Positions 29,848 through 55,412 are shown, counted from the stretch's first letter. The stretch is DNA of 64,000 bases from a virus (IMGVR_UViG_3300042331_000303); one strand, 5' to 3'. Notes: generated from the letters alone by a model not told the origin. Program-made: numbers and translations.

Positions 29848-30091
29848 TCCGTACAAGCCCCGCTTCCGCATCCTGATCGAACCCATCTCTGGTGACGACT
29901 ACCGCTGCGCCATCCAGCCGCTCGTCGCGGGGGTGACGCACGCCGAAGTGGCCGCCGGCTTGGCGAAGGTGATGACCCACCTGCTGACCGCGCCCGAGGC
30001 CAACGTCCTGACCGTGCTTGCGACGGGCTCTGCGGCCCCTACGCCTCCAAAGAAGCGCCACCGGGGCCGCATCAAGCACCTGCCTCTCTGA
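29840..30091 (+). CDS. Small hypothetical protein
   Basis: Coupled ORF. Confidence 0.5.
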   Translation: MDDPYKPRFRILIEPISGDDYRCAIQPLVAGVTHAEVAAGLAKVMTHLLTAPEANVLTVLATGSAAPTPPKKRHRGRIKHLPL

Positions 30092-30094
30092 GGG

Positions 30095-30781
30095 CTACGA
30101 GATGTTCTGGAACTGCGACAGCTCGAAGAGCTGAACACGCAGGCTGCGGGCCGCCGCGCCGAGCGCCTTGATCCCGCCGTACACCACGCCCTGTGCCGTC
30201 TCGCGGAGCGCCGCAGAGAAGATGTAGATCGGAGCCCCGGAGTCCGTCTGGCCCGAGCGGATCGTACAGGTCACGATGAGGGAGATCGGATCAACGGCGA
30301 ACGTCACGAAGTACGCCGTGTTCACCGCGATGGTCACGCCCGTAGGCGTGAGCGCGTCGACGTTGTTGTTGCTCGTGAGCACCTGGAACGTCGGGCCGAC
30401 CGAGCTGTCGAACACGAGGCAGAACTTGTCGTTGTCGGTCGCGTCGTCGAACGCGGTCGGGGTCGCCCGCACACCGAGTTCGATGCGGCAGTTGGAGACC
30501 GAGGCGCCGGTGATGAACTCGAAGCGCACCACGGGCGATTCAGCCGGGTTGACAGTGACAGCCTGCCACGAGGTCTGGTTGGTGTCCAGATGCGGCCGCG
30601 CCACGATGGAGTCGTTGGCGAGCGCCCCCGTCGTGAGCGCGCATCCGCTGCTCAGGTACGGGACTGAGCCGCCGTCCACCGCGTTGGTGCCGAGGATCTC
30701 GAAGTTGAGATTCGCGGCCACGCCGATGCTGGCGTTGAGAAGGGGCGGCTGCCGGAAGAACTCACGAAGGTTGACGCGCAT
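30095..30781 (-). CDS. Beta-sandwich (lectin/jelly-roll-like) structural protein
   Basis: Strand patterns VVRFEF, RIELGV, FCLVFD, FQVLT, YFVTFAV. Confidence 0.55.
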   Translation of the reverse strand: MRVNLREFFRQPPLLNASIGVAANLNFEILGTNAVDGGSVPYLSSGCALTTGALANDSIVARPHLDTNQTSWQAVTVNPAESPVVRFEFITGASVSNCRIELGVRATPTAFDDATDNDKFCLVFDSSVGPTFQVLTSNNNVDALTPTGVTIAVNTAYFVTFAVDPISLIVTCTIRSGQTDSGAPIYIFSAALRETAQGVVYGGIKALGAAARSLRVQLFELSQFQNIS

Positions 30782-30790
30782 GGGGGACTC

Positions 30791-32278
30791 CTACCGGCGG
30801 GGGTTGGCAGTGAACAGGGACAGTGGGAAGGGGCGGTTCGCAGAGACGTCGATCTGCTTGGATGCACGGCGCACAGGGGCGCTGCCGAGCTGGTCGTCGA
30901 TCCAAGCACGCGCCTCGGCTGCCGTCTTGAACGGCTCCTTGTACGCTTCGACGATGTAGACGCCGCCGCAGCTCAGGACGCGGAGGCCGCGGTAGACCTG
31001 ACCACGCGGGCGGCCCTTTCCGTTGGTGCGAAGGGCGAGCGGGTTCCGGGTCGGCTTGGTCATCTCGCGCTTGACGTGGCGGCCGAGCCAAGCCTTCGCG
31101 GAGGCGAGCTTGGTGAACTCGCGGCCGTAGGGGCGCACCACGAACTTCGTGCCGACACGCTCGATCGCGTGACCTGCATGGATGAGCATCTCGCCCTCGC
31201 GGAGCACCTTGCCGGGGTTCCGGGTCGGCTTGGTCATCTCGCGCTTGACGTGGCGGCCGAGCCAAGCCTTCGCGGACGAGAGCTGGGAGAACTCGCGCCC
31301 GTAGGGCTGGACGACGAACTTCGAGCCGGACCGCTGGATCGAGTGTCCGGCGTGGATGAGCATCTCGCCCTCGCGGAGCACCTTGCCGGGGTTCCCCGTC
31401 GCCGAGCGACGGGGATTCTCGCGGAGGTCGCCCTGGTGCTCGCGGACCGGCTCGCCGTTGGCGAAGAGCGTGACGTCCTCACCGGCTGCACGCCCGCGAC
31501 CGCTCTTGCTCTGGCCGCGGTAGAGTGCGAAGACGGCGTCGGCCGCCTTGCGGTTGGAGCCGCGGTGGACCGTGCCGATGTTGCCGACGAGGACTTCGTA
31601 CAAGGCTGCGCGACCGGAGTTGCGTCGGAGTCCCGCGCTCTCGGCAGCGGCGCGGGTCTTGTAGCGGGTCACCTGCTGGATCGTCTGGCTGGCTGGCGAG
31701 TAGATCTGGAGGACGAAGCTCTTGCCGTGCGCGTAGACGTATCCGCGGTTGCCCGAGCGGGTAGCGAAGGACGAGACCTGCTCGGCATCGCCGTACTTCC
31801 GGACATCCGTCGACCAGAAGTCGGCTCGCGGGTTCTCCTTGTAGCGATCCTCCTGCCGGAGGTTGTCCTCGGAGGTGTGCTGGGCATGGCGGCGGAGCAG
31901 CGTGGTGCCCGCACCGGCGCCGCCGAGTCCGACGGTCGAGCCCATCGGCATCGGGACGCGCGTACGGTAGCTGTCCTGCCCCGGCTTGAGGTAGCTGTCC
32001 TTGGTGGCGTACTTCGCGCCGCGGGCGTCCGGGTTCCGGTCGAGCCACGCCAGCACTTCGCGCAGGGCGGAGCCCGCCGTCGCAGTCGTCGGCTGGATGC
32101 GGACGTGGGGCACGTAGCGGACCTCGATGGTGTCGCCCATCGGCTTGTAGCTGATGGCGATCTTCGACTGTGCCTTCCGTGCATGCTCGCCGATGTAGAC
32201 GCCGAGCGTGTTGCCGGCCTTGACGATCTCGCCGAAGCGGAACGGTTCGGGGTTCTTGCGGGTGCGACGCTTGGCCAT
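30791..32278 (-). CDS. Multi-module basic late protein with repeated RxN(P) linkers
   Basis: MAKRRTRKNP...; nine xxN(P/S/G) sites; internal 58-aa duplication. Confidence 0.7.
   Translation of the reverse strand: MAKRRTRKNPEPFRFGEIVKAGNTLGVYIGEHARKAQSKIAISYKPMGDTIEVRYVPHVRIQPTTATAGSALREVLAWLDRNPDARGAKYATKDSYLKPGQDSYRTRVPMPMGSTVGLGGAGAGTTLLRRHAQHTSEDNLRQEDRYKENPRADFWSTDVRKYGDAEQVSSFATRSGNRGYVYAHGKSFVLQIYSPASQTIQQVTRYKTRAAAESAGLRRNSGRAALYEVLVGNIGTVHRGSNRKAADAVFALYRGQSKSGRGRAAGEDVTLFANGEPVREHQGDLRENPRRSATGNPGKVLREGEMLIHAGHSIQRSGSKFVVQPYGREFSQLSSAKAWLGRHVKREMTKPTRNPGKVLREGEMLIHAGHAIERVGTKFVVRPYGREFTKLASAKAWLGRHVKREMTKPTRNPLALRTNGKGRPRGQVYRGLRVLSCGGVYIVEAYKEPFKTAAEARAWIDDQLGSAPVRRASKQIDVSANRPFPLSLFTANPRR
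31041..31394 (-). repeat. Tandem duplication, 174-bp period (two copies)
   Basis: NPGKVLREGEMLIHAGH...AKAWLGRHVKREMTKPTR twice; period 31041/31215/31389. Confidence 0.85.
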
Positions 32279-32280
32279 GA

Positions 32281-33054
32281 CTACTTCTCCTTGCGCAGGT
32301 AGGCGGTTGCCCGTGCCCGCATGCTGAACCACTTGTTCGTGCCGTTGATGTAGAAGCGGCCGTCCTTCTCGGTGATGCCGCCGATGCTCTTTGGAGCCTT
32401 GAGATGCAGTTCGAGCGAGAGCTGCTTCGCTTCCCGCTTGACCTGCGCCTCGATGGCCTTGCGCTCGCCCCGGGCGAGCTGGGCGGCGCGCTGGACGCGC
32501 TCTCCGATGCCCGTGTCAACCTGGCCGAGCGAAGCAGCGTAGGCGTACGCCTTCTCCTCGGAGCGGAACCGCTTGCCGCCAGGGCGGACCTCGTACATTC
32601 CTCCCGTGCGGGCGGGAGGAACAACGCGGTAACCCTTGGCCTTGCGGCCATCCGCGAGCATGAACTCGATGGCCTCGCGCCGGATGACGGCGTCGGGCTC
32701 CATCGCCTTCTTCTGCGCCTGAGCGAGCCCCTTCGAGGTGAGGGTCCGCGTTCCGGGCTCCAGGTAGCCGTGCTTCTGGAGCTGCTTCGTGGCGATCATA
32801 AACGCCGTGCGGAGCGGCATGTCCTTCCCCCGCTCCGCGGAGGACTCCATGATGCCGTGAGCCACGATGGTGACGTACTCACTCGCTGCGTCCTTCAGGC
32901 GGTCGCCTGTAGGGTTGGTGCGGAGCAGCGCCGTTGACCGTCGCTCGATGGGCCCTCGACCGAAGCGGAGGTCCACCATGCCTTGCGGGCGCAGGGCGAC
33001 CACGGTGCCGGAACGGCCCCCGAGGGTCACGCGCTGGCCCACCCGCACAGACAT
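32281..33054 (-). CDS. Late protein: SH3/KOW-like N-domain, LRTNP linker, further modules
   Basis: VRVGQRVTLGGRSGTVV; TGATG coupling. Confidence 0.6.
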   Translation of the reverse strand: MSVRVGQRVTLGGRSGTVVALRPQGMVDLRFGRGPIERRSTALLRTNPTGDRLKDAASEYVTIVAHGIMESSAERGKDMPLRTAFMIATKQLQKHGYLEPGTRTLTSKGLAQAQKKAMEPDAVIRREAIEFMLADGRKAKGYRVVPPARTGGMYEVRPGGKRFRSEEKAYAYAASLGQVDTGIGERVQRAAQLARGERKAIEAQVKREAKQLSLELHLKAPKSIGGITEKDGRFYINGTNKWFSMRARATAYLRKEK

Positions 33055-33602
33055 CAACGGCGGCCGTTACGCCGAGGGTTGGCGGAGATGCGCGCTTCGG
33101 ACCGGACGCCCGACTTGAAGACGACCGCGTACTTGTCGCCGAAGTAGATCGCCATGTAGTGCTTCAGCGCCTTGAGCGTGTCGAACCGGACAACTCCATC
33201 GGTAGAGGGGCGGCAGGCATAGCCGTCAGAGGTCTTCCAGTAGTAGACCGTCTTGGTCGGGGCGCGCTTGGCTCCGCGGTTCCAGCGGAGCGTGGCGCCG
33301 TCGTCACCGGCCTCGTCCATCTTGATGTAGTGCGCCGCCGCGCTCCAGGCGAGCTTGAAGCCCTCTCGGAACGCCTTGCCGGCCTCCGAGGTCGACTTCC
33401 ACCACGCGGCGGGGACAGACGCCTTGGCCTGCGTCAGCGTGCGGGCGTTCTTGTCGTAGAACGCCGACTTCGCCGCTTCGTACCCCTTGAGGTAGAAGAT
33501 GTTCATCGGGTGCGCGGTGTCCTTGTACGCGGCGCTCTTGACCTTGGAGCCCCCGTAGTTGGCGCGAAGGCGGCGGGTAGAGGTGCGATGGCTGGAACGC
33601 AA
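33054..33602 (-). CDS. Basic late protein
   Basis: TTG start with GGAG; LRANY and SANPRRNGRR. Confidence 0.55.
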   Translation of the reverse strand: MRSSHRTSTRRLRANYGGSKVKSAAYKDTAHPMNIFYLKGYEAAKSAFYDKNARTLTQAKASVPAAWWKSTSEAGKAFREGFKLAWSAAAHYIKMDEAGDDGATLRWNRGAKRAPTKTVYYWKTSDGYACRPSTDGVVRFDTLKALKHYMAIYFGDKYAVVFKSGVRSEARISANPRRNGRR

Positions 33603-33669: not shown

Positions 33670-33685
33670 GATCGAGTGCTATCTA
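33670..33685 (-). promoter_or_regulatory. TAGATAGCACTCGATC element
   Basis: TAGAGT 35 nt downstream. Confidence 0.72.
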
Positions 33686-34501
33686 TGCCTGCCGCTGCCG
33701 GTTCCGGGTTGCAAGATCTCGCATCTCGCGGAGCTGGCTGAGCGTGCCGTAGGTCGAGCCCCGAATCTCTGCGCGCTCCATCAGCTCGTCGGCGCGGAGG
33801 CGGAGCATGGACTTTGCCGGCGCGAGCGCCGTGATGTCCCAGTAGACCTCTTCGATCTGAACTTGGAGGCTGCGGTTCTTGCGGAGCTTCCCGCGGTACC
33901 CCTTGTGCGATCCCTTGCGCCCCTTCTTCCGCTTGGGGTTGGTCCGTGCGAGCGCGGTCGAGGACGCGGAGGGCCGCTTGAACTTCTTGTAGGCGTACAG
34001 GCCCAAGAGCGCGACGCCGCCGAGAGCGGCGCTCCACAGCCAGACCTTGACGCTGGACTCGACCCCCGTCTGAATGACGGAGGCTGCCGTGTACGTCGCA
34101 GGCAGATCGACGTGCAGGTGGTCCTGCTCCATGAGCGCCCGGCCGCCGGTGGACGTGACTGCCGCCACGAGCTGGTCCCGCTGGGCTTGGCTCAGGGTGT
34201 TGGTGTGGAGGTCGAGGGCACCGCCCCACAAGTGGCGCGAGAGGCGCATCCCCTCTCGCTCGATGAGAGAGGTCCACGCAGCCTTGTCTTGCGGCAGCGC
34301 GAGCAGCTTGGAGATCAACGCCTTGTCACCGTAGATGTCCAGCGCGGAAGCGCCGTACTTCTGGACCTTGTAGAGCATCGCCGACGCCTGTTCGGCAGCA
34401 GTGCGGCCAGCGCTGGTCACGCGCACAGGGAACCCCGACGGCAACGCCGACTGGAGCTTGCTGAAGTAGGCCGACTGGCCCGCGGTCATTGCCGTACCCA
34501 T
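33683..34501 (-). CDS. Membrane-anchored M15-like peptidase (candidate virion entry lysin)
   Basis: VTSAGRT, SRHLWGGALDL, DHLHVD; TM WLWSAALGGVALLGLYAY; RTNPKRKK. Confidence 0.7.
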   Translation of the reverse strand: MGTAMTAGQSAYFSKLQSALPSGFPVRVTSAGRTAAEQASAMLYKVQKYGASALDIYGDKALISKLLALPQDKAAWTSLIEREGMRLSRHLWGGALDLHTNTLSQAQRDQLVAAVTSTGGRALMEQDHLHVDLPATYTAASVIQTGVESSVKVWLWSAALGGVALLGLYAYKKFKRPSASSTALARTNPKRKKGRKGSHKGYRGKLRKNRSLQVQIEEVYWDITALAPAKSMLRLRADELMERAEIRGSTYGTLSQLREMRDLATRNRQRQA

Positions 34502-34516: not shown

Positions 34517-34936
34517 TTACTGCGAGCCGCCGTAGGCCAGCTCGACGGTCTCGGTCCCAACGCCTACGCCTGCGGCCATGATGATCTGCATGCGCACGGC
34601 CTTCGCCGGAAAGGTGAAGTTCAGAAGGAGCGGCTGGTTGAAGACCGCAGCGGTAGCCGCAGAGAGGTCCAGCCACTCGAACTCGACGACGGTACCGCCC
34701 GGCCCAGGGACACCGATGGAGGCGACCGCGAACTGCGGAATGACCGTCAGACCGTTGCCCGTCGCAGAGGCCGTCTTGCGGAGCCAGAAGCAAAGGAGCT
34801 TGAGATCGCCAACGATCACAGGTGGCGTCGTGTACGTCACGCCCTGATCCAGGCCCGAGAGCGTGAACCGAGTGACGGTCGACGCGGCGGACGACGTCGA
34901 GCTGCCAGTGGTATCGACACGGGACTGGCCAGCCAT
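34517..34936 (-). CDS. Small beta-rich structural-like protein
   Basis: LLCFWL, LTVIPQFAV, AVRMQI, VELAY strands. Confidence 0.6.
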   Translation of the reverse strand: MAGQSRVDTTGSSTSSAASTVTRFTLSGLDQGVTYTTPPVIVGDLKLLCFWLRKTASATGNGLTVIPQFAVASIGVPGPGGTVVEFEWLDLSAATAAVFNQPLLLNFTFPAKAVRMQIIMAAGVGVGTETVELAYGGSQ

Positions 34937-35560
34937 TTAGTAGAAGCTCCCCTGAACCGCCAACTCCAGCGCTGCGAGGCTCGGGTTGAGGTTCTTGATC
35001 TTCTCGAAAGTCAGGACGACACGCCAGTAGCGGATCGGATAGCCGTCACCCGTCGGGTAGAACTGGAGGATGCGGCTGTCGACGCCACCGTTGTGCGTGA
35101 GGTCGCGGGTGATGTCCACCGGGGGATCGGTAGCCACCACGAGCTGCGCGTTGTTCACATGCGCAAACGCCTGTGCCGTAACCCGAAGGGCCTCGATGGC
35201 GGCCTGCCGAGGCGGACCGTCCGTGCCCTTGTTGAGGCCCGTCACTTGCGCCCACAGCTTGGTTCCAGCCTGGTAGCCCGCCTTCCAGATGGGAACGCCG
35301 TTCGCGATGCCTTGACCAGAGCCACGAAGCTCGGGCCGCAGATCGAACAAAGGGCTCTGCCACTGAGCGCGCCAGTACACCGGGTTGTTGACCGCGATGG
35401 GCAACGGCTGCGGCGTCCACACGATGGCCGTCCGCTCGCCCGACCACCACGCCGTGTTGGACAGAGACGGCCAAGGCCCCGGGACCGAGGACCCGGGGTT
35501 GTTGGTGTAGCCGTCCGGGTTGTAGGGCCCGAACGGGGGCTTGGGCTGGTCGAAGTACAT
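34937..35560 (-). CDS. Beta-rich structural-like protein with Pro-rich N-arm
   Basis: MYFDQPKPPFGP..., YWRVVLTFE, ELAVQGSFY. Confidence 0.6.
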   Translation of the reverse strand: MYFDQPKPPFGPYNPDGYTNNPGSSVPGPWPSLSNTAWWSGERTAIVWTPQPLPIAVNNPVYWRAQWQSPLFDLRPELRGSGQGIANGVPIWKAGYQAGTKLWAQVTGLNKGTDGPPRQAAIEALRVTAQAFAHVNNAQLVVATDPPVDITRDLTHNGGVDSRILQFYPTGDGYPIRYWRVVLTFEKIKNLNPSLAALELAVQGSFY

Positions 35561-35565: not shown

Positions 35566-36237
35566 TCAGCGCGGCATGTAGTTGCGGGGACCGCGCATCT
35601 CCAAGCACTGGAAGGTCACGTCGATCCGGAGGTTGGCCAGAAGCGGCGTGATGCCGACCTGAACCGACGCACCCTGATCGAACGTCCAGCCAGTTCCGCC
35701 CAGCTCACCGGGCTGCTCCGAGGTCCCGCACACGGTGGAAGCGAGGCGGGAGTTGACCATCAGGCGGTCGCCGTTGGTGTACTCGACGCGGAGCAGCCAG
35801 CAGTCGCGAGGTCCGACGCCGACCGGGAGGGCGTTGCCGCCAGCCGCGGACGTGTTGAACGCGGAGCCGTTGATCGCGATGAGTCGGACCGGGATGTCGA
35901 ACTGAAGCGGGCGGATCGTCTCGGAGTTGAGCACGAAGTCCGAGTCAGCCGAGGTGAGGCTCACCGAGTAGTACCGGGTCTGGTACCCGACGTTCGGATC
36001 GGTCGAGAGGAACGGGGAAGTCGGGAAGTACGGCTGCCGGACCCAGGCAGGCGTGCCGGGTTCCTTGCCGCCCATCTGGTTGGCGAACGGCATCTGGAGG
36101 ACGGCTGGACGAGGGTTTGCCGGGTCGCTGCCGTAGGGAGTCACTTGGGGGCCCATGCCTCCGCCGACGTAAGCGTCGCTGGGGACGCCGTAGCCCGGGT
36201 GGCCAGGGGGAAACGGGCGACCGTACTGGTCGTACAT
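35566..36237 (-). CDS. Candidate minor capsid/penton protein (single jelly-roll-like)
   Basis: Pro/Gly arm then strands YYSVSL, VRLIAI, WLLRVEY, SVQVGI, IDVTFQCLE. Confidence 0.5.
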   Translation of the reverse strand: MYDQYGRPFPPGHPGYGVPSDAYVGGGMGPQVTPYGSDPANPRPAVLQMPFANQMGGKEPGTPAWVRQPYFPTSPFLSTDPNVGYQTRYYSVSLTSADSDFVLNSETIRPLQFDIPVRLIAINGSAFNTSAAGGNALPVGVGPRDCWLLRVEYTNGDRLMVNSRLASTVCGTSEQPGELGGTGWTFDQGASVQVGITPLLANLRIDVTFQCLEMRGPRNYMPR

Positions 36238-36410: not shown

Positions 36411-37115
36411 TTAGCCGATCTCGATCACGTTCTTGTAGTAGCCGAGCAGGATCACGCGGATCACGATGGGCTGGGTCTGGACGGCGGCGGCGCGGGAACC
36501 CCAGCGGAGCAGCATCGCGAAGGTGCTGTTGCCCGGGAGCGCGACGGGGTGCTTGCGGTAGAGCCACAGAGCGCCGTTGCCGTTGTTCAGGTTGCCCGAG
36601 CCGGCTTCCGCACCGGACGAGTTGATGGCCTCGGCGCCGAACACACCACCACCGGCACCGATCAGGTGCGCGGGGGCCACGTCCACCTGGGTCTGGGTGA
36701 AGTCCCAGGTCAGCACGCAGTTGTTGATGAAGTTCTGGAGGTTGGTCACCGAGTTCGCGATGGCGGTGTCGTTGACCGGCACCGAGAGCGTTCCCGCCGC
36801 GTCGGTGTTGGTGTCCTGGAGGAACTGGGCCGCGATGCCGAAGACGTCGTAGGCGACGCCCGAGGGGATACGACCGCCCTCCTTCAGGTTGGTCTCCGAG
36901 ATCGAGAGCGCGTTCGCGAAGCCCTGGCCGACCTGACCGAGCGGGGTGGTGAAGACCCGGTTGGTGTTGTTGGCCACGGCTGCGGCCGCGTAGAACTGGG
37001 AGGACCAGATCGTCTGCTCGCCGTAGCGGAAGAGGTTCTTGGGCTGCTCCAGGGGGAACGCCATCGAGGCGCCGTCGCTGGGACCGAGAAGAGGGACGCC
37101 GGGGACACCGTACAT
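36411..37115 (-). CDS. Candidate major capsid protein, copy 2 (single jelly-roll-like)
   Basis: Beta-rich, no TM; VFTTPLGQ..ETNLKEGGRIPSGVAYDVFG..LTWDF..LPGNSTFAMLL..VILLGYY; strong GGAG RBS; fold is inferred. Confidence 0.5.
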   Translation of the reverse strand: MYGVPGVPLLGPSDGASMAFPLEQPKNLFRYGEQTIWSSQFYAAAAVANNTNRVFTTPLGQVGQGFANALSISETNLKEGGRIPSGVAYDVFGIAAQFLQDTNTDAAGTLSVPVNDTAIANSVTNLQNFINNCVLTWDFTQTQVDVAPAHLIGAGGGVFGAEAINSSGAEAGSGNLNNGNGALWLYRKHPVALPGNSTFAMLLRWGSRAAAVQTQPIVIRVILLGYYKNVIEIG

Positions 37116-37217: not shown

Positions 37218-37949
37218 TTAGCCGATCTCGATCACGTTCTTGTAGTAGCCGAGCAGGGAGACCTTCACGGCCGCGGAGAACTGGTTCGCCGCGAGGGTGC
37301 CGGCGCGGCTGCCGAAGCGGAGCAGCATCGCGAAGGTGCTGTTGCCCGGGAGCGCGACGGGGTGCTTGCGGTAGAGCCACAGAGCGCCGTTGCCGTTGTT
37401 CTCGGCACCACGCTGGAGGGCCACGGCGTCGTCGTCGCTGACGGCGATCGAACCGAAGATGCCACCACCGGCGCCGACGAGGGAGGCGGGGGCGATGTCG
37501 ACCTGCGTCTGGGTGAAGTCCCAGGTCAGGACGAGGTTGTTGGTCAGGTTGACCACGACCTGGGTACCCGAGTTGGTACCACCGAGGATGGCGCCGTTCA
37601 TCGGGGGCGACAGGGTGCCGGTGTCACCGACTGCCGTGGCCACCATGATGTGGCAGGACACGCCGAAGACGTCGTAGGCGACGCCCGAGGGGATACGACC
37701 GCCCTCCTTCAGGTTGGTCTCCGCGATCGAGAGGGCGTTGCCGAAGCCCTGGCCGACCTGACCGAGCGGGGTGGTGAACACGCGGAACGTGCCGTTGGAG
37801 ATCGTGAGACCGCCCGCCGCGCCCTGGAACATCTGAGTGCTCCAGATCGTCTGCTCGCCGTAGCGGAAGAGGTTCTTGGGCTGCTCCAGGGGGAACGCCA
37901 TCGAGGCGCCGTCGGGGGGAAGCATGGGAACACCGGGGATGCCGTACAT
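37218..37949 (-). CDS. Candidate major capsid protein, copy 1 (paralog of 36411..37115)
   Basis: Long identical blocks with neighbour; differs in a few loops. Confidence 0.5.
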   Translation of the reverse strand: MYGIPGVPMLPPDGASMAFPLEQPKNLFRYGEQTIWSTQMFQGAAGGLTISNGTFRVFTTPLGQVGQGFGNALSIAETNLKEGGRIPSGVAYDVFGVSCHIMVATAVGDTGTLSPPMNGAILGGTNSGTQVVVNLTNNLVLTWDFTQTQVDIAPASLVGAGGGIFGSIAVSDDDAVALQRGAENNGNGALWLYRKHPVALPGNSTFAMLLRFGSRAGTLAANQFSAAVKVSLLGYYKNVIEIG

Positions 37950-46479: not shown

Positions 46480-46857
46480 CTACGCCACGTACCCGGCCGC
46501 CAAGGCAGCCGCGCCGTAGATCCAGCAGAGCTGCGCGAGCGGCTCCCCCTTGTCCGCGAACTCGTAGGCCCGCTTGACGAGCTGGACCTCCGTGTACTCG
46601 ACCTTGTCGCCTTCGCGGGTGGGCGTGGATTCCCGGCGCGTGCGGCCCTGCTGGTCCTCCGCCGCCTTGTCCATGATGTTCGCGGCCTGTTCGAGGATCT
46701 TCAGGAGCTTGCCGTCACGGGCCTTCGCGGCGCGCATCCCGGTAGCTGCCACGATCTGCCGGTCGGACTCACGCGCCCGCTCCATGCACTTCCAGGCGTG
46801 CTCCCAGCGGGCGAAGGTCAGCGTGTCTTCCAGTTCGATGGGCGAGGAGTGGTTCAT
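46480..46857 (-). CDS. Helical hypothetical protein
   Basis: ORF track. Confidence 0.55.
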   Translation of the reverse strand: MNHSSPIELEDTLTFARWEHAWKCMERARESDRQIVAATGMRAAKARDGKLLKILEQAANIMDKAAEDQQGRTRRESTPTREGDKVEYTEVQLVKRAYEFADKGEPLAQLCWIYGAAALAAGYVA

Positions 46858-46897
46858 CCGATCTGCGTAGCTCGAACATCGTCAGTTGACAAGGGCT

Positions 46898-47158
46898 TCA
46901 ACGCTTGAACCAGTTCGAGACCTGCTCCTTGTGCGTGTAGGCGTAAGCGAGAGCGACCAAAGCCCCGAGAGCGGGAGCCGAGCCGAGCACTGCGCCTACC
47001 GTGCGGGCCTTCGGGTGGACCTGAAGCCCTACTTCATCTCCCACGAGTGCGCCACCCGCAGCTCCGACGAGGAGAACGGTGACGAGAGCGCCCGTAGCCA
47101 GCTTCTGGTCAGTTGAGCTGCTGGTACCAGTCATGGTGCCATATGATGGTTGAAACAT
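46898..47158 (-). CDS. Small two-TM membrane protein
   Basis: MFQPSYG..., GGAG RBS, two hydrophobic helices. Confidence 0.55.
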   Translation of the reverse strand: MFQPSYGTMTGTSSSTDQKLATGALVTVLLVGAAGGALVGDEVGLQVHPKARTVGAVLGSAPALGALVALAYAYTHKEQVSNWFKR

Positions 47159-47969: not shown

Positions 47970-48844
47970 CACGCAACTCGGTGGGGCATCATCGTGCCGT
48001 AGCTCTCGTAGCGGGGGTAGCGTTCGAGGCGCTTCTTGGGGCTCTCGGCGTACCAGAGGTCCGCCGCGGCGTGCGCCTGCTCGCAGGTGCGGTGCTTGCT
48101 GCGTGGGTGGCCCAGCACGTACAGCACGGCGACTCCGGTACCGCACCAGATCAGCACGCCGTCCTTCGCCGCCGCGGTGACCCCATCCGGGGCGCGGTCG
48201 TCCGGGAAGGGCTTGCCTTGGAATCCGCCACGGCGAGCTGCCGAGGCGGCCCGCTCAGCGGCTGCGAGGCGCTCCTCGTCCTCGCGCGTCCAGCCTTCCG
48301 GCCGGCGCCGAGCCCACGCCGGCTTCGGCTCCTTGGGCGGACGCTTGGCCCGGCGGGCGCGCTCCTTGGCGGCCTCGCGCTTCTCGGCCGCGCGCTCCTC
48401 CGCAGCCTCGCGCTTGACCTTCTCGGCGTCGAAGCCGAAGCCGAAGCCGTAGTCGAACGCGCTGGCCTTGTACCCGGCGGGTTCTGGCTCGACTGCCTTC
48501 AGCTCTTCCGGCGGAGAATCGCCAGCAATCGGACCAACAACGAGCCAGAGCTTCGGAAACTGCCGAAGCATGCTCCGGGCGAGGTTCTTCGCCGCGGCCT
48601 GCTCGCCCTCGGGCGCGTTCGCCGAGGGCTTCAGGAGCGCGAGGGCCTTCCGGTAGAGGGACTCGGCCTTCTCGTAGGGCGGGTTCTTGCGGATCGTGGT
48701 GCGGACCTTCTCAGGCCGGAGGCTGAACTTCGCCCCGGGAGCACCGCAGCGGTAGCACGGCATGGCATAGGCGGCCTGCTTGGACAGGTCCACCTTCACC
48801 GTGATCGGCTTGCGGCAGCGGGGGCAGGAGCCTTGGACGGTCAA
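47969..48844 (-). CDS. Zn-ribbon + IRKNP linker + DUF2786-like domain protein
   Basis: CPRC...CYRC; KALALL...EGEQAAAKNLA. Confidence 0.6.
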   Translation of the reverse strand: MTVQGSCPRCRKPITVKVDLSKQAAYAMPCYRCGAPGAKFSLRPEKVRTTIRKNPPYEKAESLYRKALALLKPSANAPEGEQAAAKNLARSMLRQFPKLWLVVGPIAGDSPPEELKAVEPEPAGYKASAFDYGFGFGFDAEKVKREAAEERAAEKREAAKERARRAKRPPKEPKPAWARRRPEGWTREDEERLAAAERAASAARRGGFQGKPFPDDRAPDGVTAAAKDGVLIWCGTGVAVLYVLGHPRSKHRTCEQAHAAADLWYAESPKKRLERYPRYESYGTMMPHRVA

Positions 48845-48848
48845 GAAC

Positions 48849-49382
48849 TCAGTCCTCCGAGCTGTGGTGCTTGCGGCGGCGGGCGTACTTGGTCTTGTCC
48901 TTGTGCGCGCCGGCCTTCCGCTTGACGCGGAGGGCGAACTCCGTGCCGCGGCGGGGTTCGATCTCAGCGAGAGCGGCCCGGAACTGAGCCTCCGTGCGCG
49001 GAGCCCGCTTCTTCTTGCCGCGGTTCTTCCGGGCCGCCTTCACGCCCGAGATGACTGCGCCTGCCGCGACCCCCTTCGGGCCGAGCAGCGCGAGCAGCTC
49101 CGGGTGGTTGTAGGCCAGCTCGATGGGGAGCGTGGTCGAACGAACCATCCGACGCGGACCCGCCTTCATCTGCTCGATGGTGAAGCGCTTCGCTTGGTCC
49201 CAGGTCGGGTTTGCCCGGATGCCGCGGCGCGCCTCCCGACGCTCCAGCTCGCGTTCGTACACGTCCAGCTTGGCCAGCAGCGAGTGCTCTTCTCGGCGAG
49301 AGGCCACCGCGAGAGCGTCCTCCACCTTAGCGATGGCTCGCAGGATCTGGTCGGTCGTAGCCTTGGAGAGGGGGATGGCCAT
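48849..49382 (-). CDS. Basic late protein
   Basis: GIRANP and ARKNR motifs; GGAG RBS. Confidence 0.55.
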   Translation of the reverse strand: MAIPLSKATTDQILRAIAKVEDALAVASRREEHSLLAKLDVYERELERREARRGIRANPTWDQAKRFTIEQMKAGPRRMVRSTTLPIELAYNHPELLALLGPKGVAAGAVISGVKAARKNRGKKKRAPRTEAQFRAALAEIEPRRGTEFALRVKRKAGAHKDKTKYARRRKHHSSED

Positions 49383-49383: not shown

Positions 49384-50562
49384 TCAGGAACTCCGAGAAG
49401 AGCCGTGGCGGTACCCGAGCTTGTCCAGGACTACCTGCGTGGAAACGGAAACGGCGACACCTGCGAGGACGGCGACGCCGACCTGCTTCCAGTTGACGCC
49501 GAAGAACTCCAGACTGTCCGACGAGGTGTCGCGCTCGCTCAGCGAGGCTGCCACCTGACCACCAGCCTCGGCCGCACCGGCGAGGCCATTGAGGGGGGCC
49601 GGACCGAGCGTAGCCACCAGAGACTTCCGCAGGTCCCGGACAGCCTGCGCAATCGCCTGTGGCGGCGCGAGACGCCGCTCGTACACCACCGAGATGCGCT
49701 GAGCCGCCTGTGCCAGGGTGCCCGCGATGTGCGCCCACTCGTTTCGCACGTCGAGCTGGACAGCTTCCTCCGCGAGCGCCTCCACCTTGAGCAGGTGCTT
49801 GCGGATGCAGTCAGGGCAGCGACGGTTGGGGAACGCGAGGTGGTCTTCGAGCAGGAGCAGCTCCTTGACCGCATCGCGGAGATCGAGCGCCGGGTCGCGG
49901 ATGTCATGCCGGATCGGACTCGGGGTGTCAGCCAGCATGGGGCCAGCGAGGCCCGCCGTGGCCATCTCCGGCAGCGCCTGAGATCGAGCGCTGACCACGT
50001 CCCAGCCGAGCGGCGCCCCCTTGAGCGTCGGCTCCGCGAACGTCCAGCTCGTGGGCGTGAAGGGCTTGTCGCCGACCGCGATGTAGATGTGCGACCACTG
50101 CACGCCACGGATCAGAGGCTCGCCCTCGACCCAACGCACCTGCTGCTTGTCCTTCCCGACTCCGGAGAGCACGAAGCGCCAAGGCATGCGGACGCACTCC
50201 AACAGCGCGCCCAGCAAGATCGCAAGGTCGTCACAATCGCCACCGCCGATCTTGATCGTGTAGTCCGGGGCTTGCAGGCGTTCGCCGGGTTCATTTCGGT
50301 AGTAGAGGCCCTGAACGTAGCGGAGGAAGGCGGCAGCCTGCCCGCGGTAGTCCCGCGGCTGAGCGCCGGCCTGCACGAGAATCCTCTGAGCCAGCTCGGC
50401 AATCCGGGGGTCGCGCCCATAGGTGAGAACGATCCGACGAAGGACAGCGATGCGCTCTGCGTCGTTGATGTTGCCCCAGTTGGGCAGGTGGAAGGTCTGC
50501 GGCGGCTTGTAAGCCACCGGTACCACCGCGGTTCCGAGGATCTGGGACAGGTTAGGCGCCAT
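49384..50562 (-). CDS. Transglutaminase-like (papain-fold) cysteine enzyme with C-terminal TM
   Basis: GGDCDDLAILLGALL (Cys), WSHIYI (His), FAEPT; C-terminal hydrophobic helix. Confidence 0.78.
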   Translation of the reverse strand: MAPNLSQILGTAVVPVAYKPPQTFHLPNWGNINDAERIAVLRRIVLTYGRDPRIAELAQRILVQAGAQPRDYRGQAAAFLRYVQGLYYRNEPGERLQAPDYTIKIGGGDCDDLAILLGALLECVRMPWRFVLSGVGKDKQQVRWVEGEPLIRGVQWSHIYIAVGDKPFTPTSWTFAEPTLKGAPLGWDVVSARSQALPEMATAGLAGPMLADTPSPIRHDIRDPALDLRDAVKELLLLEDHLAFPNRRCPDCIRKHLLKVEALAEEAVQLDVRNEWAHIAGTLAQAAQRISVVYERRLAPPQAIAQAVRDLRKSLVATLGPAPLNGLAGAAEAGGQVAASLSERDTSSDSLEFFGVNWKQVGVAVLAGVAVSVSTQVVLDKLGYRHGSSRSS

Positions 50563-50610: not shown

Positions 50611-50626
50611 GATCGAGTGCTATCTA
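50611..50626 (-). promoter_or_regulatory. TAGATAGCACTCGATC element
   Basis: Exact 16-nt copy; the -10 spacing is less clear here. Confidence 0.62.
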
Positions 50627-50938
50627 CACGTCGGATGGCTCGACGTGAGGGCCGAGAAGGCGGGAGCCCATCTCGAACATCGCCCCCATGATGGCCTGTT
50701 GCTTCGCGGCCACCTGCTTTCCGACCTCCGAGAAGTGCTGGTCGTAGAGGAAGTCGATCTCCTCGTCGGTGTACGTCGTGCGGAACAGGTCGTAGGCTTC
50801 GTCCGCCATCGAGCCCCACGCCCGATCCAGCGCAGTGGAGTCCTTGGACGGCATCATGCCGAGAAGGGGAACGACGCTGGTCTTGGTCGTGACCAGCGCG
50901 TTCTCCAGCACGGCGGCGAGCTTCTCCTCCGGGCTCAC
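50624..50938 (-). CDS. DUF2059-like small helical protein
   Basis: YTDEEIDFLYDQHFSEVGKQV. Confidence 0.5.
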   Translation of the reverse strand: MSPEEKLAAVLENALVTTKTSVVPLLGMMPSKDSTALDRAWGSMADEAYDLFRTTYTDEEIDFLYDQHFSEVGKQVAAKQQAIMGAMFEMGSRLLGPHVEPSDV

Positions 50939-51393
50939 TTCGCACCGTCCTTCTTCTTCTTGCGGACGATCTTGGCCGGCTCGGGCGCTTCGGCTTCGTC
51001 GGCGACCAGACCGAGGGTCTCGCGGAAGCTCTTGTGCGCTTCAGCGATGTCCTTGTCGAGCGCGCCGGGGGCGAGGAAGACCTCGTCCTCTTCGAGCAGG
51101 AAGGGCTCCAAGGTCGATTCGTAGGCGTGGTACTGGACGCGCACCTGCATCTCCAACAGGGGCTCGGCTTCCGCGCGCTGGGCTTCCGGAACCTGCTGGA
51201 GGAGCTGCTGGAGCGTGCCAGCCTTCAGGCCCTGAAGGATGGCGTACTCGGGGTTGGGGATGCAGCGGGCGACCGTGACGCGCGTCCAACCGACCGGGAC
51301 GCCATCGCTGCCATCGTCGTCGTCGGTGTAGGCTTCGTCAGCGGGCGTCAGCCCCGAGAAGGCGCAGGTGATTTCGTCGTTGTCGAGGGGCAT
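50935..51393 (-). CDS. Acidic hypothetical protein
   Basis: ORF track. Confidence 0.55.
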   Translation of the reverse strand: MPLDNDEITCAFSGLTPADEAYTDDDDGSDGVPVGWTRVTVARCIPNPEYAILQGLKAGTLQQLLQQVPEAQRAEAEPLLEMQVRVQYHAYESTLEPFLLEEDEVFLAPGALDKDIAEAHKSFRETLGLVADEAEAPEPAKIVRKKKKDGAK

Positions 51394-51396
51394 GGC

Positions 51397-52041
51397 TCAG
51401 GTCTCCGAGATGATAGGGGTGCGGGGGGCCGGTTCGAGCATGTTGCTCAGGTCGGTGTACTGGAGGGCGCTCGCGACCTGCGCGATGTTCTCCGCGAGCT
51501 TGTCTACCAGCGGCGCTGGGACGTAGCGGGGCTCGGTCACAGCGCGAATGCCGGCGCGCAGGCCGCCCATCTGCTGGAGCCAGCCGAGCGTGCGGCCGTA
51601 GACGGGCGCGTCACACAGCCGGCGGAGCGCTTCCACCCGATCGGGCTGCGGCAGGTCGAGGCCGAAGTTGTGCTGCCACTCGTGGAGGAGCGCGATGAAC
51701 GCTTCGTAGCCCTGCGTGAGCTTCTGCTGGCGCGACAGCTCCTGCGAGGCGTGCAGGTTGGTCTCCACCGTGGCCGGCGCGGGGCCCGGCCCTGCGACCG
51801 ACTGGTCGGGGTGGAACGGGTGGTCGGGCTCGGCATCGAACGCGCGCGCCGCGGGCGGCGGGGGCGTGTAGAGCGGAGCCGCAGGAGCCGCTACGGGCGT
51901 CGGCTCGGCATGGTCGCTCGGGAACATCTCCTTGTAGGCCGACAGGAACCGCGGCAGCATGGTCTGGAGCTGGTCTGCCACCGGCTGCCGCGGAGCTTCC
52001 GCGGAGCCGGAGGGCTCGATGAAGATGGTGATCTTGAGCAT
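51397..52041 (-). CDS. Hypothetical protein, Pro-rich linker
   Basis: Start MLKITIFIEP. Confidence 0.55.
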   Translation of the reverse strand: MLKITIFIEPSGSAEAPRQPVADQLQTMLPRFLSAYKEMFPSDHAEPTPVAAPAAPLYTPPPPAARAFDAEPDHPFHPDQSVAGPGPAPATVETNLHASQELSRQQKLTQGYEAFIALLHEWQHNFGLDLPQPDRVEALRRLCDAPVYGRTLGWLQQMGGLRAGIRAVTEPRYVPAPLVDKLAENIAQVASALQYTDLSNMLEPAPRTPIISET

Positions 52042-52045
52042 GTGG

Positions 52046-52930
52046 TCAGTCCTGTGGGGGGTCGGGAAGGGTGGGAGGGGCCGGAGGGGCGGAGCGCTGG
52101 ATGGAGTCGAGGCGGTAGGATCGGATCCACCCCTCCACGTACCAAGGGATGCTGGGGACATCCTCGCGGAGGAAGATGTAGGTGTAGGCGCGCGCGACCT
52201 TGTTGTAGCCCTTCGCCACCATGACGAAGGTGCGATCTTCGAGCTGGAAGGTCCGTTCCGGCGAGAGGTTCTCAGGGGATTCGTAGATGATCTTCGCGAA
52301 GGTGTCGCTCGCCCAGGGCGGTAGCGTGATTTCTGCCCCGTCGTCCAGCGTGACGGGGAGAGGCTTGTTGCGGATCGGCCACAAGAGTGCCGCGCTCTCC
52401 TCCTCGCGCATGGCCGCAGGGTACATATCGTGGAGCATGTCTTCGATCTCGTCCGCTGCTGGGTGCCAGCCTTCTCCCATCTCGTTGATCTCAGGCTCGT
52501 AGCCTTCTTCCCGCAGGCGATAGTCTGCATGCCCCTTGGATCGCCAGAGTGAGAGGCAGGCCGCCGTGACAGGAGAGTCGGCGAGCATCTCCAGCGTGTA
52601 GGGGGCCTCTGAGGCGAGGCTCGGCTCCGCTGGGCGGACTTCGGCGACAGGAACGGGCCCAAGGAGCCCTTCTCCGATCCGCTGCCAGATGCTGCCTCCC
52701 AGCCGCGTCCATGCACTGACCTTCCGGCTCGTGAGCGTCCGCGCCAGCCGGGCGTCCACGAGAGACTTCACCTCGGCTACCGTGTCCTCCTCGAACGAGA
52801 AGGTCCCCCCCGCTACACGGGCTTCGCCGTGCCAGCGGCCTTCCAGTGTCGGCTTGACCATCCCGGCGATGGTGCGCGTCCCGCGGACAAGGCGGTAGGC
52901 GGCGTCCGCGGTGGTGTACTCCCCGTACAC
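52046..52930 (-). CDS. Hypothetical protein (GTG start gives MYGE...)
   Basis: 3' part of ORF 52046..53056; start uncertain. Confidence 0.5.
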   Translation of the reverse strand: MYGEYTTADAAYRLVRGTRTIAGMVKPTLEGRWHGEARVAGGTFSFEEDTVAEVKSLVDARLARTLTSRKVSAWTRLGGSIWQRIGEGLLGPVPVAEVRPAEPSLASEAPYTLEMLADSPVTAACLSLWRSKGHADYRLREEGYEPEINEMGEGWHPAADEIEDMLHDMYPAAMREEESAALLWPIRNKPLPVTLDDGAEITLPPWASDTFAKIIYESPENLSPERTFQLEDRTFVMVAKGYNKVARAYTYIFLREDVPSIPWYVEGWIRSYRLDSIQRSAPPAPPTLPDPPQD

Positions 52931-52944
52931 GGGGGACCAGTCGG

Positions 52945-53343
52945 TCAGGCTTCCTCGAAAGGGGGGGCCGTGCTCGACGGGGCCTCCCCCGCCACCGGCG
53001 GAGTAGACGACGGCTCGAACGGATCGACGTTGCTTTCGCCGGGGTAGGGCGGGCAAGTGTCGACCGGGCGCTGCCCCGCGTTCATGTTGGAGAGGTACTC
53101 GGTGACGAGCGGCGCGAGGTACGGAAGGATCAGGGAGATCAGCTCGCGCTGGCTTTCCCCGCGGAGCCGAGCCACGTCGAGCTTGTCGGCCTGCACCTTC
53201 TCCAGCCGCTTCCAGAACATGGCTTCCCGCGCGGCGTCCCGCTCGTTGGACTCGCGCCAGACGCGCTCCATCCGGTCGAGAGTGGCTTGCATGATCTGGA
53301 GCTGAAGATTCACCAGTTCGCGTTCGTGAGAGGAGCTATCCAT
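52945..53343 (-). CDS. Coiled-coil hypothetical protein
   Basis: ORF track. Confidence 0.55.
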   Translation of the reverse strand: MDSSSHERELVNLQLQIMQATLDRMERVWRESNERDAAREAMFWKRLEKVQADKLDVARLRGESQRELISLILPYLAPLVTEYLSNMNAGQRPVDTCPPYPGESNVDPFEPSSTPPVAGEAPSSTAPPFEEA

Positions 53344-55324
53344 AGTTCGTGTCTCCGGGGAGCATGCCCGACAGCTTCAAGCCGTCGATGAGGCGGGTGG
53401 TGATCTCGGCGTCCAGACCGGCTTCGAGGAAGGCGCGGCGGATGGTGATGGCTTGGCAGTAGTGCGTCACGGTCGGCTCGTTGGCCACAGTGACGAGGAT
53501 GATCTCCTGCCACTTCTCGGGGGCGGAGTTGCGGACCTTCGTGGCCGCCTCTCGGAGCGCCACGCGGCAGCGCTTCTGCGCGTCGAGAGGCAATCCGGCG
53601 TTGCGGGCGTCGGAGACGGTCGCCGAGCCTTCTGCCGTGGGTGCCGCCCCCGCAGCCTGCGTGTCAGCCGGGTTGGCCGCCGCTTCCGTGTCGGTCGGCG
53701 CGTTGGCCGGTACCATCGCGGTTCCGGGCTGCGGCGCGTACTGCGGCGGCAGCATCGACATCATCGGCAGTTGGAGCTGCGACGCCTGCTGATCTGCGCG
53801 AGCCTTCATGCCCGTGGTCACGACGTCGCCAATCACCTTGATGACGGCGGGAACGGCCTCGGCCCATGCGGAGCCTCCCCCGCCTTCCTCTCCACCGCCA
53901 CCGAGTCCGCGCTGGATGATCTCGGTCGGGTCGATGCCCAAGGTCTTGGCGAACTGGAGGCCGTTCTTGATGGTGTCCATGAGGTTGCCGCCGGTCTCGG
54001 CCTTCTGCTGGGCAGCCGTGATCTGCATCATGCGCTCGGCGTGCTCGCGCTGCTGCGTGGCAGCCAAGTCCATCTCCTTGAGCATGCGGTCGTGCTGACG
54101 CTGGCGCTCGGCCTCGCGGCTCGCCGCCATCTCGCGCTCCAGCTTCTCCTTGCGCTCGACCTCCGCGGCATCGCGGCGACGCCGGTCTTCCATGTCTTCG
54201 CGCCAGAGACGCTCCTTGCGCTCCTGCTCCTCGCGGTACTGGCGCTCCTTTCGCTCCAGCTCGTCTCGCTCGCGCTGGAGCTTGGCCTGGATCTCCTCCT
54301 GCTCGCGGCGGAGACGGACTTCGTTCTCCTGACGCTCGCGGAGGCGCCGCTCTTCGGACTCGGAGAGATCGCGCTTGCGGCGCTCTTCGGAATCGAGCCG
54401 TTCGCGCTCAGCGCGCAGTCGCTCCTGCTCCAGGCGGTACTCGTCCGCGCGGCGCTGCTGTTCGGCGAAGCTCGACTGGGCTGACGCCTGCTGCGAGAAC
54501 AGTGCCGTGATGGTCGTGAGCATGGTGCTGCTCTGGCCGGCAAGCTGCTGCTGAGCGGCCTCCATGACCGTGCGCTGCTGCTCCAGTGCCATGGACGCGC
54601 GCCGGCTCTCGTCGTTCATCATGCGCTCGGTGAGCGCGTGGACGCCAGAGGCGGCCGAGGTGGCGAGGTCGATCCGCTCGCGCGCCCGCTCCTCGTCCTG
54701 ACGCTGGATGCGCTCTCGTTCGGAGGCGAGCTGGAGTTCGAGGGCTCGGGCGCGCTGCTCGGCCAGCTCCGCTTGGCGCTCCATGAGGCGCATGAGCCCA
54801 GGGTCCATGCCGCCGAGCATGGTGATGGGCGCCCCGTTCGGGCCCGTCGGGCCGGCGGCGGCCAGCCGCAGACGGCGGATTTCCTGATGCTCCTCGCCGA
54901 TGATGTGCGTGATCTCCTGCCCCATCTCGACGCCGTTGATGTCGATAGGGCGGAGCTTGAACTGGCTCTTTCCCTCACCGACCTTCGGCATGGAAGGGTA
55001 GCACGCCCGCACGAGGTCTTCCTCGGTGGCCTGCGCGTCGATGACGCCGAGGCCGACGCGCACTCCGTTCTCGACCTTCCACACGCGGAGCTGCTGGCAG
55101 TTCGGGTAGTTCGCGGCCTGCGCATACAGCCGGGGGCTGGTCGCGCGGCCCATGAGGCTCACTGCGTCGTCGGGCATGCCGAACGAGGGCGCCTGAGCAG
55201 CGGATCCGTGCAGGATGGGCGCCGGGTCGAGCGATTCGATGCTGGGATCGTTGAAGTCCCCCGCGTCGGGATCGTTGAAGTCAGCGGGGTCGAAAGCGGG
55301 TTGTCCGCGGCGGGTCTTTGCCAT
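53336..55324 (-). CDS. Large protein with long charged (E/R/Q) coiled coil
   Basis: Start MAKTRRGQP; ~250 aa ER-rich helix; globular ends. Confidence 0.7.
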   Translation of the reverse strand: MAKTRRGQPAFDPADFNDPDAGDFNDPSIESLDPAPILHGSAAQAPSFGMPDDAVSLMGRATSPRLYAQAANYPNCQQLRVWKVENGVRVGLGVIDAQATEEDLVRACYPSMPKVGEGKSQFKLRPIDINGVEMGQEITHIIGEEHQEIRRLRLAAAGPTGPNGAPITMLGGMDPGLMRLMERQAELAEQRARALELQLASERERIQRQDEERARERIDLATSAASGVHALTERMMNDESRRASMALEQQRTVMEAAQQQLAGQSSTMLTTITALFSQQASAQSSFAEQQRRADEYRLEQERLRAERERLDSEERRKRDLSESEERRLRERQENEVRLRREQEEIQAKLQRERDELERKERQYREEQERKERLWREDMEDRRRRDAAEVERKEKLEREMAASREAERQRQHDRMLKEMDLAATQQREHAERMMQITAAQQKAETGGNLMDTIKNGLQFAKTLGIDPTEIIQRGLGGGGEEGGGGSAWAEAVPAVIKVIGDVVTTGMKARADQQASQLQLPMMSMLPPQYAPQPGTAMVPANAPTDTEAAANPADTQAAGAAPTAEGSATVSDARNAGLPLDAQKRCRVALREAATKVRNSAPEKWQEIILVTVANEPTVTHYCQAITIRRAFLEAGLDAEITTRLIDGLKLSGMLPGDTNYG

Positions 55325-55412
55325 GCCGCACAAGTATGGTCCGATCCCCGCCCGGTCAAGTGCGCCTGCGCGACCTACGTGGTATATAAAGGAAACATCG
55401 GAGATCGGCCGG

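Follow-up and report, generated by a model that had tools for sequence, protein, structure and literature searches.

A late-gene block with jelly-roll, membrane and protamine-like proteins in a ~131 kb uncultured virus: a candidate lineage of large tailless bacterial viruses

A late-gene block with twin jelly-roll proteins

The viral sequence IMGVR_UViG_3300042331_000303 was analysed over a stretch of 64,000 nucleotides (the window), which has a G+C content of 64-69% along its whole length and is part of a phage-like element. Exact-protein matches place the window in the public metagenome record Ga0453735_0000030 (JBFDQB010001106.1; 131,055 bp), which begins 7,437 bases ahead of the window start; a second assembly bearing the window measures 131,501 bp, and the two are circular permutations of one genome of ~131 kb. 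According to public gene calls, 37 co-oriented minus-strand genes run from position 55324 down to 30095, in agreement with the ~25 kb of co-oriented late genes described in an earlier note that a model had made from the sequence alone. Among the late-block proteins that were scanned, there is no match to a virion family of either PHROG or Pfam. The block 30095-55324 is best read as the virion-morphogenesis module of an uncultured bacterial virus that does not follow the tailed-phage plan. It includes five genes in the order protamine-like membrane protein, A, B, C and D, a series present in every relative examined, among them the contigs that were fetched whole: G001 (105 kb), G003:C152 (92.7 kb) and G006 (39 kb).

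Protein A is encoded twice, by a first copy of 243 aa (37218-37949, minus strand) and a second of 234 aa (36411-37115, minus strand); the two are 65-67% identical and correspond to the twin beta-rich proteins that the earlier note had singled out. Each twin has the same pyrimidine-rich leader with GGAG and, according to folding, its own strong GC hairpin past the stop codon; a simple scan finds no canonical terminators around the pair. The G+C content at third codon positions (GC3) of the twins, 0.92, is the joint highest in the window, and this value together with the common strong leader and the flanking hairpins fits A as the most abundant protein of the virion. A is likewise duplicated in tandem on one contig binned as Alphaproteobacteria and on one binned as Gemmatimonadales (L015, G004:C8 7810-9202; P0011 and P0012), and occurs in one copy in G001, G003 and G006.

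Protein B (223 aa; 35566-36237, minus strand) consists of a disordered Pro/Gly-rich N-terminal arm followed by a jelly roll over residues 59-223. Folds were predicted with AlphaFold2 for A and B, two of the 37 late proteins, and the models reach a mean predicted local distance difference test score (pLDDT) of 65 for the first copy of A and 82.9 for B; each contains one eight-stranded jelly roll of ~150-210 residues. When the models were compared with known structures by Foldseek and VIA-align, capsid proteins of membrane-containing icosahedral viruses stood at or near the top for both. For B, the leading Foldseek rows are the P3 proteins of PRD1 and PR772 (E 2e-3, probability 1.00), and VIA scores are 7.1 for HHIV-2, 6.9 for SPV1, 6.7 for Orf D13, 6.4-6.5 for the EhV capsid, 6.4 for PRD1 P3, 6.1 for STIV and 5.5 for P23-77 VP17; the PRD1 P3 matches span one of the two barrels of P3. 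A search of BFVD with the model of A returned only generic small-virus jelly-roll capsids at low TM scores, and a profile of A gave nothing meaningful against the sequences of solved structures. No paralogy among A, B, C, D and a 208-aa late protein is detectable by profile-profile comparison. A prediction of an A and B complex scored 0.00 in a run without controls and speaks neither for nor against binding. The earlier note had expected jelly-roll capsid proteins, and the two proteins that were folded, A and B, are jelly rolls, not tail-tube or HK97 folds. At the level of the models, the fold is thus confirmed, a capsid role is plausible and homology is unproven; A is our candidate for the major capsid protein and B for a second capsid protein.

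The two genes that follow encode further beta-rich proteins. Protein C (207 aa, with a Pro-rich N-terminal arm; 34937-35560, minus strand) is kept in all relatives and is a candidate vertex or minor capsid protein, and D (139 aa; 34517-34936, minus strand), conserved in position and profile, would agree in size and place with a penton-type or cementing protein. The three additional beta-rich proteins anticipated in the note are therefore present, B by its jelly-roll fold, C and D as judged from sequence only. Few late genes are as well conserved as A and B, at 51-59% identity across four genomes. The late genes common to these genomes are those for a 662-aa protein, an acidic 152-aa protein, a transglutaminase-like enzyme, the 208-aa protein, the basic membrane protein and A to D; beyond the late block the four hold in common little but an SNF2 helicase, an integrase, a family A polymerase and a few small genes. 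Two remote relatives, picked up by a profile search with B, retain the gene order, with a basic R-x-N-P protein followed by A, B, C and D.

Basic, membrane and accessory proteins of the block and its flanks

Seven late proteins carry net charges of +20 to +68. The most basic of them, a 533-aa membrane protein (38048-39649, minus strand), has a protamine-like N-terminal half, R-x-N-P motifs, at least two hydrophobic helices and a GIASMN element repeated three times; its charge of +68 bears out the Arg-rich core-like protein of the earlier note. Its conserved C-terminal domain has homology in G001, G003 and G006, and equivalent basic proteins precede A at loci L118 and L119. Sequence, charge and hydrophobic helices make it a candidate for linking condensed DNA to a membrane. 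Three other very basic proteins of 182 aa (+22), 257 aa (+24) and 495 aa (+45) lie at 30791-33602 (minus strand) and contain short repeated modules bounded by R-x-N-P motifs; one such module recurs in the proteins of 892 and 1032 aa of G003 and G006. They are candidate core or DNA-condensing proteins and possibly processed polyproteins. More broadly, R/K-x-N-P (often N-P-R-R) occurs at the N- and C-termini and between the repeated modules of very basic late proteins, both in the window (30791-33602, 38048-39649 and 41531-41857) and in their counterparts from close as well as distant relatives (G001, G003, G006, L118:652-1542 and L119:1-1071). It may mark a site of processing, as Asn-Pro bonds are prone to cleavage, or serve in DNA binding or targeting.

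Fourteen small proteins of 70-210 aa make up a membrane cassette at 41531-47134 (minus strand), the majority of which have, in a hydropathy scan, either one C-terminal hydrophobic helix with a basic tip or two such helices; they are candidate virion-membrane proteins. By BLAST, only those at 46480 and 45068 and part of that at 44433 are conserved in G001. Across the late block, a C-terminal hydrophobic helix lies above threshold in eight proteins (49384, 44433, 43972, 43582, 43199, 42774, 41880 and 41531) and is borderline, below threshold, in that at 45323, which comes close to the ten or so tail-anchored proteins claimed before; two helices are found at 46898 and 45842, and one internal helix at 48849. 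As a proxy for an internal membrane we take these predictions, about a dozen membrane proteins in the block.

Such a wealth of membrane proteins and of basic DNA-condensing proteins would also suit a non-icosahedral virus, for example a pleomorphic one or one enveloped around its nucleoprotein, whose jelly-roll proteins would act as spikes, matrix or fusion proteins. The jelly-roll fold by itself is no proof of a shell, and the searches described below found no packaging ATPase of any kind. We nevertheless give this explanation little credence: four conserved, adjacent small beta-sandwich genes, one of them very highly expressed, fit a set of shell and vertex proteins better, the leading structural neighbours are shell proteins, and a separate cassette of the holin/endolysin type suggests lytic release over budding.

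That cassette, probably a lysis cassette, comprises four small plus-strand genes (28588-30091), including an M15_4 peptidase at 28796-29350 (Pfam Peptidase_M15_4, 4e-8). Adjoining the peptidase gene, a 155-aa protein (29380-29847, plus strand) gives a faint match to the Sf6 small-terminase-like (helix-turn-helix) family at E 0.0087, well under the curated cut-off and with no terminase large subunit gene adjacent.

The remaining late genes are described from the start of the block. Its first gene (53336-55324, minus strand) encodes the largest late protein, of 662 aa, in which the sequence outlines an N-terminal domain, a coiled coil of ~300 aa rich in Glu, Arg and Gln, and a C-terminal domain; it has no PHROG or Pfam match, its ESM Atlas look-up was uninformative, and homologues share 44% identity in G003 and 31% in G001. 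It is a candidate scaffold or size-determining (tape-measure-like) protein. Five acidic proteins of 132, 294, 214, 152 and 104 aa (50624-53343, minus strand) are candidate assembly or scaffolding factors; the 152-aa protein (50935-51393), with an acidic N-terminal half and a Lys-rich tail, is kept in relatives, and no PHROG match was obtained for the four that were scanned (the scan left out 52945-53343). The 392-aa transglutaminase-like enzyme of papain-like Cys-His fold (49384-50562, minus strand), also named in the note, matches Pfam Transglut_core weakly in the window (E 0.0014) and clearly in its homologues in G001 (3.5e-10) and G003 (4.4e-11); with a C-terminal hydrophobic helix at residues 361-379 and 47-52% identity across relatives, it is a candidate maturation protease or cross-linker. 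Next come proteins of 177, 291 and 245 aa (47175-49382, minus strand), the first two strongly basic (+21 and +20), without family matches other than a weak one to phrog_4301, of unknown function, at 47175-48146 (E 0.0011).

Beyond the membrane cassette, the 208-aa protein (40905-41531, minus strand) is enzyme-like: an alignment of four genomes (33-50% identity) shows invariant His, Asp and Glu residues and, at the C-terminus, a GITD motif. The protein has no family matches and its ESM Atlas look-up was uninformative. Between its gene and that of the basic membrane protein sits an HNH homing endonuclease (39974-40816, minus strand; PHROG HNH families to 4e-28, Pfam HNH_3), which is a selfish element rather than a part of the virion. 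In G003:C152 an HNH endonuclease carrying NUMOD4 lies between A and B (43989-44879; L027:5989-6879). Downstream of D, a basic protein of 272 aa and +20 (33683-34501, minus strand) is a candidate virion-associated wall hydrolase; where the earlier note had seen a membrane-anchored M15 peptidase, the M15-like segment is there, at sub-threshold level (Peptidase_M15_3, E 0.006, with E 0.002 for the same segment of the G003 homologue, likewise sub-threshold), and the hydrophobic segment that would anchor it is marginal. The block ends with a beta-rich protein of 228 aa (30095-30781, minus strand; GC3 0.90), which has no family match and is a candidate spike or receptor-binding protein.

The 11-mer AGCACTCGATC, allowing one mismatch at most, occurs at 11 sites in the window against 1.8 expected, among them 33670, 36303, 45817, 46102, 46459 and 50611 on the minus strand; the sites lie mostly in minus-strand intergenic gaps of the late block, a distribution that fits the late promoter element proposed in the earlier note. 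Outside the block, ARAGORN finds 29 tRNA genes in the window, all in one minus-strand array (23409-28299), instead of the 33 counted before. The SNF2-family helicase (273-1835, plus strand) is 40-51% identical across four genomes and so matches the jelly-roll genes in conservation; it is one of the few P-loop proteins kept in all four and lies directly downstream of the late block in G003 and G006. A 117-aa gene of the Acb2/Tad1 hairpin family (L032:2310-2663), a sponge of the anti-CBASS/Thoeris type, lies some 3.8 kb to the left of the window, flanked by a DNA methylase on one side and an SbcC/SMC-like ATPase on the other. Just left of the window, a lone opposite-strand gene (L032:5460-6299, minus strand) encodes a beta-rich protein of 279 aa, rich in Thr, Gly, Ala and Asn, that matches DUF1942 faintly (E 0.0015) and could be an additional virion or surface protein outside the late block.

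Hallmark genes, packaging ATPases and the tailed-phage alternative

Searches at the level of hidden Markov models covered the window, its flanks from -18 to +73 kb relative to it, G001 and G003:C152, and found no terminase, portal, HK97 capsid or tail family in any of them, in line with the earlier note, which had recognised no such gene. For the flanks, precomputed Pfam assignments were available for every called gene, which brings the part of the genome examined to ~106 kb of ~131 kb; they list only replication, anti-defence, lysis and HNH functions. Terminase_6N and TerL_ATPase are absent from G001, G002, G003 and G006, the last having been searched for terminase families only, and no terminase is among the matches listed in scans of all open reading frames of G001 (PHROGs and Pfam) and G003:C152 (Pfam), which comprise only replication, methylation, nucleotide, lysis, HNH and transglutaminase families. 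Tail families went unmatched except for a faint fibre match in G001 (E 5e-4); the beta-sandwich late proteins could be fibre modules. The sole structural PHROG annotation in any relative falls on a 525-aa protein of G001 (51182-52759; L005:11182-12759), which matches phrog_1645, 'virion structural protein', at E 3e-39; it is without a Pfam match, and the window encodes no homologue of it.

The proteins with a Walker A motif could all be assigned: SNF2, RecD- and UvrD-like helicases, a Sak4-like AAA_24 protein, an SbcC/SMC-like protein, thymidine kinase and an AAA+ P-loop protein that sits in an anti-defence operon. No packaging ATPase of the FtsK/HerA/A32 type was found: the late block is without a P-loop protein, and none is left unassigned in the window, G001 or G003:C152. 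Several candidates for packaging functions were considered and rejected. A 311-aa P-loop protein of G001 gave a full-model match to AAA_24 (Sak4-like) and was discarded as a packaging ATPase; the 720-aa P-loop protein encoded immediately to the left of the window is no terminase but SbcC/SMC-like; and the 662-aa protein was dismissed as a portal with about half of its length in coiled coil. As this is the only large conserved late protein and is mostly coiled coil, there is no portal candidate among the conserved genes. Of the two sets of packaging genes that the earlier note set against each other, neither was found: terminase and portal went undetected, and so did the FtsK/A32-type ATPase that a PRD1-type model would need. 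Viruses of the PRD1, PM2, P23-77 and SH1 types are defined as much by this ATPase as by their capsid proteins.

The main rival explanation is that the element is a tailed phage (Caudoviricetes) whose hallmark genes either have diverged beyond the reach of Pfam and PHROG profiles or are located outside the ~106 kb examined. A to D would then be head decoration, cement, fibre or baseplate modules, and the basic proteins internal head proteins. Jelly-roll cement and fibre proteins do exist in tailed phages, large ones typically have a genome of this size, a tRNA array, homing endonucleases and anti-defence genes, the examination reached ~106 of ~131 kb, a faint small-terminase-like match adjoins the block, and automatic taxonomy assigns related ESM Atlas clusters to Uroviricota. 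Against this stands the fact that the terminase large subunit and the portal, normally the easiest genes to detect, are found neither in ~106 kb of this genome nor in relatives of 105, 93 and 39 kb. Because the four genomes have in common only the late block and a few other genes, terminase, portal and capsid would have to be missing from all contigs simultaneously. Every P-loop protein is assigned, and no tape-measure, sheath or large fibre candidate exists among late proteins of at most 662 aa, the largest being mostly coiled coil. A dozen membrane proteins within a tailed-phage structural operon would, to our knowledge, be unusual. In Pam1, KHP40 and GP4, moreover, the jelly-roll cement or decoration proteins accompany an HK97-fold capsid, portal and terminase, none of which is detectable here, and we know of no HK97 phage in which such proteins form a conserved four-gene set behind a protamine-like membrane protein. 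On balance, we regard a tailed phage as unlikely, albeit a serious contender.

Distribution, nearest virus groups and a proposed assembly

The family extends far beyond the window. Homologues of A number more than 691 at 90% clustering, none of them named, on contigs of up to 163 kb; those of B number 205 at 90% clustering, on contigs of up to 178 kb, and form 141 clusters at 50% identity. At least 80 metagenome loci come from the ocean (TARA), lakes, groundwater and other sites; the contigs carrying three of them were binned with Gemmatimonadota, Alphaproteobacteria and an unclassified proteobacterium. Contig names containing 'Hain-H41-01um' and 'Hain-H51-01um', at loci L064 and L084, suggest a groundwater 0.1-micrometre filter fraction, the names being the sole basis for this; a particle larger than 100 nm would be held back on such a filter. 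Near-identity and protein searches returned no match among isolate phage records and no homologue in an isolate phage, and no description of the lineage was found in the literature searched, so that it appears to be undescribed.

Only three loci of the family are in the viral-contig collection IMG/VR. This scarcity relative to the metagenome loci, along with the many small membrane proteins, the cell-wall hydrolase-like domains and the integrase, might be taken to indicate that the block serves no virion and instead belongs to a large plasmid-like element, as its membrane-associated apparatus for transfer or secretion. We find that scarcely credible, since the scanned sequences hold no VirB4, VirD4, FtsK or relaxase-type ATPase, nor any other unassigned P-loop protein, while a phage-type lysis cassette, a tRNA array, homing endonucleases, an Acb2/Tad1-like anti-defence gene and a late-operon organisation with very strongly expressed small beta-sandwich genes all speak for a virus.

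Among known groups, the absence of an FtsK/HerA-type ATPase combined with single rather than double jelly rolls points to the Portogloboviridae as the closest architectural analogue. In that family a single-jelly-roll shell (hexameric VP4 and pentameric VP10) covers subcapsomer proteins and a membrane, a basic protein forms a nucleoprotein core, and no packaging ATPase is among the nine ORFs of Sulfolobus polyhedral virus 1 (SPV1) with an assigned function (PMC8459092). Judged by composition, the very basic late proteins described above, one of them membrane-anchored, would fit such a core. SPV1, however, is archaeal, non-lytic and without a polymerase in its 20 kb, whereas the present element has ~131 kb, its own family A polymerase, a lysis cassette, ribosome-binding sites of the bacterial type, peptidoglycan hydrolases and tRNAs; there is no sequence similarity between the two, and the fold scores are in the grey zone.

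Other groups are more distant. The Halopanivirales and Helvetiavirae (P23-77, HHIV-2, HCIV-1 and SH1) have genomes of 16-31 kb and a conserved FtsK/HerA-type packaging ATPase encoded next to their capsid proteins, of which none was found here; neither sequences nor profiles showed any similarity to them. Viruses of the Tectiviridae/PRD1 type have a double jelly roll, where here it is single in a genome about nine times larger, and neither their P9-type ATPase nor their protein-primed polymerase B is present, the polymerase being of family A.

Our preferred interpretation is that these are large tailless bacterial viruses with a membrane and a nucleoprotein core, forming a new and widespread lineage whose architecture comes nearest to that of the portogloboviruses; we hold it tentatively, at somewhat less than even confidence. 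The capsid role, the membrane, the core and the tailless shape are what we infer from the genes, the core being read from protein composition alone. With regard to the tailless, membrane-containing jelly-roll phage that the earlier note had imagined, the jelly rolls, the lack of detectable tailed-phage hallmarks and the size hold up; an ATPase of the PRD1 type, which that model would need, was not found. Its suggestion of an unusually large, possibly undescribed lineage stands as well, with ~131 kb and 29 tRNAs lying far outside the tailless viruses of prokaryotes known so far.

Several observations weigh against this interpretation. The FtsK/HerA/A32 ATPase, a defining feature of the PRD1/P23-77-type viruses used for comparison, was not found. 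Automatic taxonomy mostly labels as Uroviricota the ESM Atlas clusters to which A, B and the 662-aa protein belong. The capsid matches of the A and B models are in a grey zone that overlaps non-viral jelly rolls and the cement and fibre proteins of tailed phages, the model of A reaches a pLDDT of only 65, and with folding confined to A and B an unrecognisable HK97 fold among the other late proteins would be compatible with the data. Some 25 kb less than the whole genome was examined (~106 of ~131 kb, with a gap at roughly 9-34 kb of the neighbouring window), the relatives are all incomplete contigs, and the faint Sf6 small-terminase-like match (E 0.0087) adjoins the late block. We also know of no tailless prokaryotic virus with a genome near ~131 kb; the genomes of known icosahedral, membrane-containing tailless viruses that infect bacteria or archaea are small, at ~10-30 kb.

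If the block does build a tailless virion, assembly might proceed as follows. Late transcription would run from 55324 downwards. The duplicated A together with B would supply the main proteins of an outer, probably icosahedral shell, with C and D as its vertex or cementing proteins, and beneath the shell would lie a membrane holding about a dozen tail-anchored proteins. The DNA would be condensed by the very basic proteins rather than pumped in naked, and the membrane-anchored 533-aa protein could fasten the resulting nucleoprotein to the membrane. A scaffold or size ruler would be provided by the acidic proteins and the coiled-coil protein of 662 aa, with the membrane-anchored transglutaminase-like enzyme acting as a processing protease or cross-linker, perhaps at the R-x-N-P motifs. 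Lysis would fall to the plus-strand cassette with the M15_4 peptidase.

A bolder version, which we think decidedly unlikely, would see in the contigs of ~60-180 kb from soil, groundwater, lakes and ocean a new lineage at the level of a realm, with a two-jelly-roll shell, a membrane, a protamine-condensed genome and motor-less assembly. The unfused A and B, arranged for instance as A3B3 pseudo-hexamers, would then represent the hypothetical ancestor state of double-jelly-roll capsomers, and the nucleoprotein would condense before membrane and shell were built around it, as proposed for the archaeal portogloboviruses. Such viruses would be by far the largest tailless ones of prokaryotes.

Virus-discovery pipelines depend on hallmark genes. 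The A/B family seemingly lacks both those of tailed phages and the packaging ATPase typical of jelly-roll viruses; hundreds of contigs across many biomes encode its proteins, against the three loci in the viral collection. Should the tailless, membrane-containing interpretation prove true, a common group of large phages has been misfiled or missed, and the size limit assumed for non-tailed viruses is wrong. The family would then offer a test case for the evolution of jelly-roll capsids and of motor-less genome encapsidation.

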